From the NCBI RefSeq assembly GCF_003334815.1, contig NZ_QOWO01000002.1: a stretch of 64,000 nucleotides of DNA, one strand, 5' to 3'. Below are positions 3,489-3,606 of this stretch, one piece after another. Position 1 is the first letter of the stretch, and the number at the start of each line of letters is the position of its first letter. The DNA comes from Escherichia coli (GTDB lineage: Bacteria; Pseudomonadota; Gammaproteobacteria; Enterobacterales; Enterobacteriaceae). The position numbers and the translations under genes are program-made. A model generated the notes under the pieces. The model made no database searches and had not been told where the DNA came from. It worked only from the letters and a program-made list of their open reading frames with translations.

Positions 3489-3567
3489 AAAAAACCCATC
3501 AACCTTGAACCGAAATGGCGGGGTTGATGGGCTCCACAAAATGGGGACATCAAAGAAAAGCAGTGGC
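3489..3567 (-). ncRNA. rybB: RybB small RNA (sigmaE-dependent, Hfq-binding; represses OMP mRNAs)
   Basis: Reverse complement reads GCCACTGCTTTTCTTTGATGTCCCCATTTTGTGGAGCCCATCAACCCCGCCATTTCGGTTCAAGGTTGATGGGTTTTTT, matching RybB incl. terminator hairpin CCCATCAACC/GGTTGATGGG + U-run; located between rcdA and ybjL as in K-12. Confidence 0.85.
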
Positions 3568-3571
3568 ACTA

Positions 3572-3606
3572 ATTAAGACTGATGCCCTGCGGAAAAGTTC
3601 TGCGGT
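3572..3606 (-). promoter_or_regulatory. Putative sigmaE promoter of rybB
   Basis: On minus strand AGAACTT (-35-like, GGAACTT consensus) ~16 nt upstream of GTCTTA (-10-like) immediately upstream of the rybB 5' end. Confidence 0.5.

Follow-up and report, generated by a model that had tools for sequence, protein, structure and literature searches.

The segment at positions 3489-3606 of the window, by which we mean the whole 64,000-nucleotide stretch of Escherichia coli DNA that was analysed, is to our judgement practically certain to hold the rybB gene known from E. coli K-12 together with its known σE promoter, a stand-alone transcription unit for an Hfq-dependent small RNA of about 80 nt. The identification of rybB at this locus is already known, textbook biology, no evidence contradicting it was found, and the original prediction was right to label it as such. 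The span given in that prediction covers the RNA and both promoter boxes, each box lying where it had been placed. The identity and position of the gene, the uniqueness of its promoter motif, the conservation of the promoter, the structural covariation of the RNA and the synteny of the locus were observed directly in our study. The features of the locus are as follows, with promoter positions counted from the transcription start:

3487..3567, minus strand: RybB small RNA, placed by the RF00110 match, the identity to K-12 and the Term-seq 3' end, with its 5' G at 3567
3593..3601, minus strand: σE -35 element AGAACTTTT, at -34..-26, with GAACTTT conserved (consensus GGAACTTTT)
3574..3579, minus strand: σE -10 element GTCTTA, at -12..-7, conserved (consensus GTCAAA)
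3612..3621, minus strand: A/T tract AAATTTTTTT, likely UP-element, at -54..-45, with 0.5-1.4 bits and unconserved neighbouring columns
3552..3567, minus strand: 5' seed or target-pairing end GCCACUGCUUUUCUUU, predicted to be single-stranded and holding CRCUGCUUUU
3493..3533, minus strand: Rho-independent terminator hairpin, stem CCCAUCAACC / GGUUGAUGGG, with a 17-nt loop that contains a small inner stem
3486..3494, minus strand: terminator U-tract UUUUUUGUU, also expected from the literature to be the Hfq-binding 3' tail, with the Term-seq 3' end inside it
3473..3499, no strand assigned: attB of P2-like/Felsduovirus prophages, with an identical core AACAAAAAACCCAT at 3486..3499 and an imperfect extension to 3473
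3644..5329, minus strand: ybjL (aspartate:alanine antiporter), from the RefSeq annotation of the identical K-12 sequence, upstream and co-oriented
2933..3469, plus strand: rcdA, from the RefSeq annotation of the identical K-12 sequence, convergent and downstream

Read directly from the minus strand, RybB begins with GCCACTGC at 3567 and its six-U run ends at 3489, which gives 79 nt; the full sequence from 3567 down to 3489 is GCCACTGCTTTTCTTTGATGTCCCCATTTTGTGGAGCCCATCAACCCCGCCATTTCGGTTCAAGGTTGATGGGTTTTTT. The original prediction had staked its identification on the Rfam covariance model for RybB, and the match is a strong one: a scan of the whole window at gathering thresholds placed RF00110 at 3564..3486 on the minus strand, over positions 1-79 of the 79 in the model, with a score of 105.3 bits, where the gathering score is 40, and an E value of 1.3e-20. 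The model begins 3 nt inside the RNA. No other Rfam family was found in 3300-3800, even at E<=1 in a permissive scan. Positions 3200-3900 of the window share 100% identity with E. coli K-12 MG1655 and with many other strains. Of 5426 complete E. coli genomes, 5419 contain the entire 140-bp segment that comprises the promoter and the RNA, at an identity of at least 99% in 5228 of them.

The 3' end of the RNA can be set more precisely from published data. The Term-seq supplement of Adams et al. 2021 (PMC7815308) contains a 'primary' 3' end of rybB, with very high read counts, at MG1655 887977(-), which corresponds to window position 3487 (window coordinate = genome coordinate - 884490). This lies 2 nt past the six-U run (...UUUUUUGU), so that RybB measures 81 nt and not 79, and the 61-nt sequence context printed with the Term-seq entry sets the end at the same position (...GGGUUUUUUGU). 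The gene had been described as invisible to ORF-based annotation, and this is borne out by the RefSeq/PGAP records, which show no feature under rybB; it is unannotated in every RefSeq row among the matches listed for the 140-bp segment. Marking rybB keeps scans based on ORFs or on annotation from taking the locus for an empty spacer, a benefit of practical value only, and the finding raises no new question. The correct label also prevents a misreading of the conserved 140 bp, points to candidate ties of the ybjL 3' end and of the rcdA 3'-end antisense to the RybB terminator, and explains the presence of a P2-like prophage at exactly this spot in about a fifth of E. coli genomes.

The original prediction had proposed a σE-type promoter, a claim now sustained by the match to the consensus, by conservation across loci, by the published dependence on rpoE and by a SELEX peak. 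On the minus strand, the promoter consists of AGAACTT (3601..3595), a 15-nt spacer, GTCTTA (3579..3574), 6 nt and the start G at 3567. The published σE consensus is GGAACTTTT / GTCAAA, and near-perfect conserved matches to it have been reported upstream of rybB (Papenfort et al. 2006, PMC1804206). We found that the -35 element AGAACTTTT fits this consensus at 8 of 9 positions and that GTCTTA fits the -10 consensus at 4 of 6, among them GTC and the last A, and deviates from the quoted GTCAAA at the other 2. In the 64 kb, both strands considered, the only match to GAACTT-N15-17-GTCNNA is the one at rybB; shuffled sequences gave an expectation of 0.18. An inverted repeat, GCCCTG / CAGGGC (3584-3589 and 3628-3633, minus strand), flanks the -35 region.

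Homologous loci were collected by scanning one genome per species with the exact first 20 nt of RybB, which recovered at least 120 loci from Escherichia, Salmonella, Citrobacter, Klebsiella, Enterobacter, Serratia, Yersinia, Hafnia, Proteus, Providencia, Xenorhabdus and others. It is important to consider that the invariance of +1..+20 is circular in this set, and that independent evidence comes only from the promoter, the remainder of the RNA and the flanks. In the 117 listed Enterobacterales loci, the regions upstream of rybB align without gaps, and the spacing between the two boxes is identical in all of them. Across these 117 loci, GAACTTT at -33..-27 carries 1.9-2.0 bits per column, AGTC at -13..-10 carries 1.6-2.0 bits per column, the A at -7 and the A at -6 carry 2.0 and 1.7 bits, and positions -4, -3 and -1 carry 1.6-2.0 bits, while the columns of the spacer at -25..-14 stay below 0.7 bits each. 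The G, T and C at -12..-10 and the A at -7 are 100% conserved in the same loci. Judged from the alignment, conserved boxes at a fixed spacing around a drifting spacer are the signature of a promoter under selection.

Published experiments agree with this reading. RybB is undetectable in a Salmonella rpoE mutant, a PrybB-gfp fusion drops to background in ΔrpoE, and RpoE or polymyxin B raises Salmonella RybB within minutes (PMC1804206, which also contains Northern blots of the RNA). The rybB promoter is active in vitro and in vivo, it is among the σE promoters active at basal σE, it is a strong competitor for the holoenzyme, and it belongs to the σE promoters with a measured effect of an upstream A/T-tract, or UP (Rhodius et al. 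2012, PMC3326320); the assignment of this effect to the exact tract AAATTTTTTT is likely. The highest peak in a genomic SELEX with RpoE-holoenzyme, of 55-fold, falls in the rybB-ybjL spacer (PMC5493296). A simple scan of 3300-3800 returned no σ70-promoter-like or terminator-like site, and the lack of a σ70-like site fits a promoter that is read by σE only. NsrR was considered as a direct repressor at the rybB promoter and was set aside, given that, in a 2025 paper, NsrR did not bind robustly in vitro to the promoters of σE targets.

The predicted structure of the RNA is that of a small RNA with an exposed 5' end and a terminator. The 79-nt RybB has a predicted folding energy of -25.2 kcal/mol (z = -3.5), a stability that 0 of 200 shuffled sequences reached. 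In the predicted fold, most of the 16 nt at the 5' end are unpaired, and the long terminator hairpin comes after them; +1 and +6..+16 are single-stranded, and +2..+5 take part in a weak helix of 4 bp. Among 100 distinct homologues, the first 25 nt do not vary; +1..+20 of them formed the search pattern, so that only the remaining positions of this stretch are informative. The CRCUGCUUUU seed contained in it is common to RybB and to MicV and VrrA of Vibrio, and it drives the repression of OmpA and OmpC (Peschek et al. 2019, PMC6694218). RybB binds Hfq with a Kd of ~100 nM, and its stability is Hfq-dependent (PMC1804206).

The terminator helix is supported by covariation. In an RNAalifold consensus of the 100 distinct sequences, 7 of the 16 pairs in the terminator helix are compensatory, and 98.7% of the cells are paired, as compared with 27-66% when the 3' partner is slid. 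Cells with a double change number 147 in this helix, where shuffles gave 47 ± 5. The covariation score is 0.285, compared with 0.147 for shuffles, and 0 of 500 shuffles attain it. The T-run and the TT two positions further on are ~100% conserved in the 117 listed loci. The simple scan misses this terminator because its 17-nt loop exceeds the limit of 8 set in that scan. A natural variant of the terminator is present at locus L126 (strain MRSN346647), where a C-to-T change in the loop is accompanied by an A-to-G change in the stem that turns an A-U pair into G-U and keeps the pairing.

Taken with the literature, these elements fit the following proposed mechanism, for which σE dependence, Hfq binding, the targets and the in vivo 3' end are provided by published experiments on the same sequence or on the Salmonella orthologue. 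Misfolded outer-membrane proteins would lead to degradation of the anti-sigma factor RseA and so free σE, which would bring RNA polymerase to the boxes AGAACTTTT and GTCTTA, with the upstream A/T tract probably helping. Transcription would begin at G3567 and end at the hairpin and U-tract at ~3487-3489. The unstructured, invariant 5' end GCCACUGCUUUUCUUU would then pair with many omp mRNAs, for example those of ompC and ompA; with Hfq on the U-rich 3' part, this seed pairing would block omp translation and make decay faster. Fewer new porins would enter the stressed envelope, and σE activity would fall, closing a feedback.

The position of rybB in the 174-bp spacer between rcdA and ybjL makes other explanations worth weighing. 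According to one of them, the segment is merely the 3' UTR of ybjL with its terminator, and the ~80-nt RNA is a tail of the ybjL mRNA left by processing or termination. Such a tail would fit with the co-orientation of ybjL, whose end lies 76 nt upstream in an order found in 94 of the 120 listed loci, with the lack of a canonical terminator between the two genes in E. coli and with the lack of a separate ybjL 3' end in the Term-seq list. We nevertheless consider this origin very improbable. A σE promoter stands at the right distance with ~2 bits per column across genera, RybB is lost in the rpoE mutant and PrybB-gfp is at background there (PMC1804206), and the strongest σE-holoenzyme peak of the genome lies in the rybB-ybjL spacer (PMC5493296). 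In addition, the rybB genes of Proteus, Providencia and Xenorhabdus keep the promoter, and the upstream sequence examined there contained no detectable ybjL homologue. Given a dedicated and conserved σE promoter, read-through can at most add to the RybB transcript and cannot replace it; as RybB vanishes without σE, read-through is no significant source of the mature RNA. Even more improbable, in our view, is that the conservation stems from a small coding gene, either a 43-aa ORF at 3422..3553 on the minus strand or a 45-aa ORF at 3515..3652 on the plus strand, both of which do exist mechanically in the list of open reading frames. The variation in the RNA consists of compensatory pair changes and loop indels and is not codon-like. 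Moreover, the ORF on the minus strand extends past the RNA into a flank whose conservation is at the background level from beyond +14 after the U-tract and whose place is taken by prophage DNA in ~21% of strains, and the one on the plus strand crosses the variable promoter spacer.

With rybB established as a gene of its own, it can be asked whether its terminator has a second role, since the original prediction had also held that it probably ends ybjL read-through. We infer that the RybB terminator is also the functional terminator of the ybjL mRNA in E. coli, an assignment that we favor by a slight margin. The stop codon of ybjL lies 76 nt from the start of rybB in E. coli, and in 94 of the 120 listed loci ybjL is likewise upstream on the same strand with its stop codon 60-99 nt from the rybB start; the shared orientation and the short, preserved spacer speak for a shared terminator. 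So do the lack of a terminator-like site in the E. coli ybjL-rybB spacer, both in the simple scan of 3300-3800 and in a relaxed scan of -110..+8, the folding of the spacer RNA at -30.4 kcal/mol (z = -2.6) with no U-tract after it, and the curated Term-seq list, where, both strands considered, the RybB 3' end is the sole one between 870014 and 889895. On the other hand, the relaxed scan is insensitive, for it detected RybB's own terminator in no more than 34 of the 120 listed loci, which makes the negative result in E. coli a weak one; the ybjL mRNA is possibly too rare for 3'-end calling, and Rho could terminate ybjL transcripts within the untranslated spacer. Our search of the literature on rybB combined with ybjL, prophage and Term-seq found no experiment with ybjL transcripts ending at the RybB terminator, and the SELEX study (PMC5493296) was the only paper in it to name both genes. 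The arrangement is also not universal, in that a 16-17-bp hairpin followed by a T-run at -68..-32 resembles a separate ybjL terminator in the Enterobacter/Lelliottia group.

The hairpin of that group (TTTGCGCG...CGCGCAGA, at loci L024, L043, L050, L052, L053 and L092) spans the rybB A/T tract and -35 box. By its sequence, it looks like a dedicated ybjL terminator that overlaps the rybB promoter, and no hairpin of this type is present in E. coli. A paper on transcriptional interference (PMC10349824) was checked for its bearing on this locus and discarded, as RybB figures there as a trans-acting factor at rbsC/rbsK and the rybB locus is not its subject. At the other end of ybjL, Term-seq reports an 'orphan' 3' end at window position 5405 on the minus strand (MG1655 889895), 76 nt upstream of the ybjL start codon and within the 5' UTR; it could reflect premature termination or processing, and no Rfam family matches at that position.

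On the downstream side, the rcdA stop codon is 17 nt from the Term-seq RybB 3' end and 19 nt from the end of the six-U run, and among the listed loci the distance between rcdA and RybB in other species ranges from 9 to 9878 nt. We rejected the idea of a bidirectional terminator that would also serve rcdA: the hairpin does form on the plus strand, but it is followed by CUCCACAAAAUGG and not by a U-tract, and the z score of the fold is only -1.9. The curated Term-seq list contains no rcdA 3' end. The published Term-seq data also contain a region of Rho-dependent termination at 887972(-) (PMC7815308), which corresponds to window position 3482; it lies 5 nt beyond the point where RybB ends and is antisense to rcdA. 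A Rho-dependent region just past the end of RybB implies that some transcription passes the RybB terminator and is then halted by Rho.

The 3' end of rybB is also a site of prophage integration. The contiguity of the rcdA-rybB-ybjL segment is lost in 1128 of 5423 E. coli genomes (~21%), and the break point is at window position 3473/3474 or 3486 in all eight split examples among the matches listed. In the two split genomes that were inspected, a P2-like prophage is present with its ogr end adjoining rybB; in strain EC416, the integrase end of the prophage adjoins rcdA. Alignment of the junctions showed that AACAAAAAACCCAT is common to K-12, to the rcdA-int junction of EC416 and to its ogr-rybB junction. 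This 14-bp core, inside an imperfect 27-bp core, takes in the U-tract of RybB and the final 5 nt of the 3' arm of the terminator. It is duplicated at both ends of the prophage and single in the empty site, an integrase lies at one end, and RybB is rebuilt intact in lysogens. About 21% of complete E. coli genomes are occupied by a P2-like/Felsduovirus prophage at the RybB 3' end. Previous reports describe a hotspot (#29) that holds only Felsduovirus prophages, integrated in rybB (PMC10121019), and an island in Klebsiella, Kpn38RybB (PMC4048246). Integrase homologues were also seen near rybB in Citrobacter, Enterobacter, Franconibacter and at one further locus (L110).

Conservation continues for a short distance beyond the RNA. 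Across genera, the sequence after the U-run follows the pattern TTTTTT-N-TT-GCCTGAAAT and reaches the background level by +14. The TT-GCCTGAAAT block, at +80 to +92 (loci L004-L123; window 3475-3488), is 58-100% conserved per column and is kept from Escherichia to Yersinia and Serratia, independently of the downstream gene; it could be related to the att site or act on termination. K-12 carries GTTATCTAAAAC in place of the GCCTGAAAT block. We also considered whether two strings on either side of rybB, GTTGCCCTGAAAAT upstream (-68..-55 in E. coli) and the consensus GTTGCCTGAAAT downstream, are remnants of direct repeats; the upstream copy is unconserved outside Escherichia, and the resemblance was attributed to chance.

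In non-lysogenic E. coli, three haplotypes are found 3' of RybB: GTTATCTAAAACTTAT, GTTGCCTGAAATTTAT and GTTGCCTAAAATTTAT. Of these, GTTGCCTGAAATTTAT matches the phage arm of lysogen WP2-S18-ESBL-08 over its first 15 nt, and GTTGCCTAAAATTTAT matches the phage arm of lysogen EC416 over its first 16 nt. The haplotypes differ by three or four clustered changes in 12 bp amid DNA that is 98-100% identical, and this clustering suggests exchange inside the att core more than independent point mutations. A tentative and rather unlikely extension is that the block TTGCCTGAAAT (~3473-3487) is kept uniform, and at times rewritten, by repeated integration and excision of Felsduovirus and not by host selection. 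Should this be true, phages would have written part of the 3'-terminal nucleotides of a core stress sRNA and of the sequence directly downstream of it. In short form, the three clustered-SNP haplotypes (window 3470-3488; loci L125, L126, L127, L002 and L003) read GTTATCTAAAAC, GTTGCCTGAAAT and GTTGCCTAAAAT, the last two being identical to the phage-borne arms of the two lysogens.

Compared with known systems, the gene in the window is the same as RybB of K-12, with identical sequence, rcdA and ybjL as neighbours, and the same σE promoter, seed and terminator; no difference was found. MicA and MicL of E. coli resemble RybB in having a σE promoter that drives an Hfq-dependent sRNA lowering the synthesis of abundant envelope proteins, whereas their sequences, loci and seeds are unrelated to those of RybB; MicL is transcribed within the cutC coding sequence and targets lpp, and rybB stands by itself in an intergenic region. 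MicV and VrrA of Vibrio cholerae share with RybB the seed CRCUGCUUUU, the repression of OMP mRNAs and the control by σE, and RybB can substitute for them functionally (PMC6694218); outside the seed, however, there is no homology, the loci are different, and RybB is absent from V. cholerae. As an integration site, rybB is comparable to the tRNA and tmRNA genes used by phages, where the 3' end of a small structured RNA is the att core and the phage copy restores the gene. It differs from them in that the target is a regulatory sRNA, as documented for Felsduovirus and Fels-2-like prophages (PMC10121019, PMC4048246).

Other RNA-related elements were found elsewhere in the window. A lone CRISPR repeat, GTTCACTGCCGTACAGGCAGCTTAGAAA, lies at 41262-41289 on the plus strand (Rfam CRISPR-DR4, 50.1 bits) and adjoins a tRNA at 41396-41480 on the minus strand; no second copy of the repeat was found in the window, even when 3 mismatches were allowed. 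We take this orphan repeat to be the known type I-F array remnant of K-12. STnc130 was identified at 56243-56377 on the minus strand with 140.1 bits in Rfam, above its gathering score. The sRNA families naRNA4/CssrE and ES036/CssrF also score above the Rfam gathering score, at 16261-16341 and 15239-15281 on the plus strand, and these two families are REP-derived.
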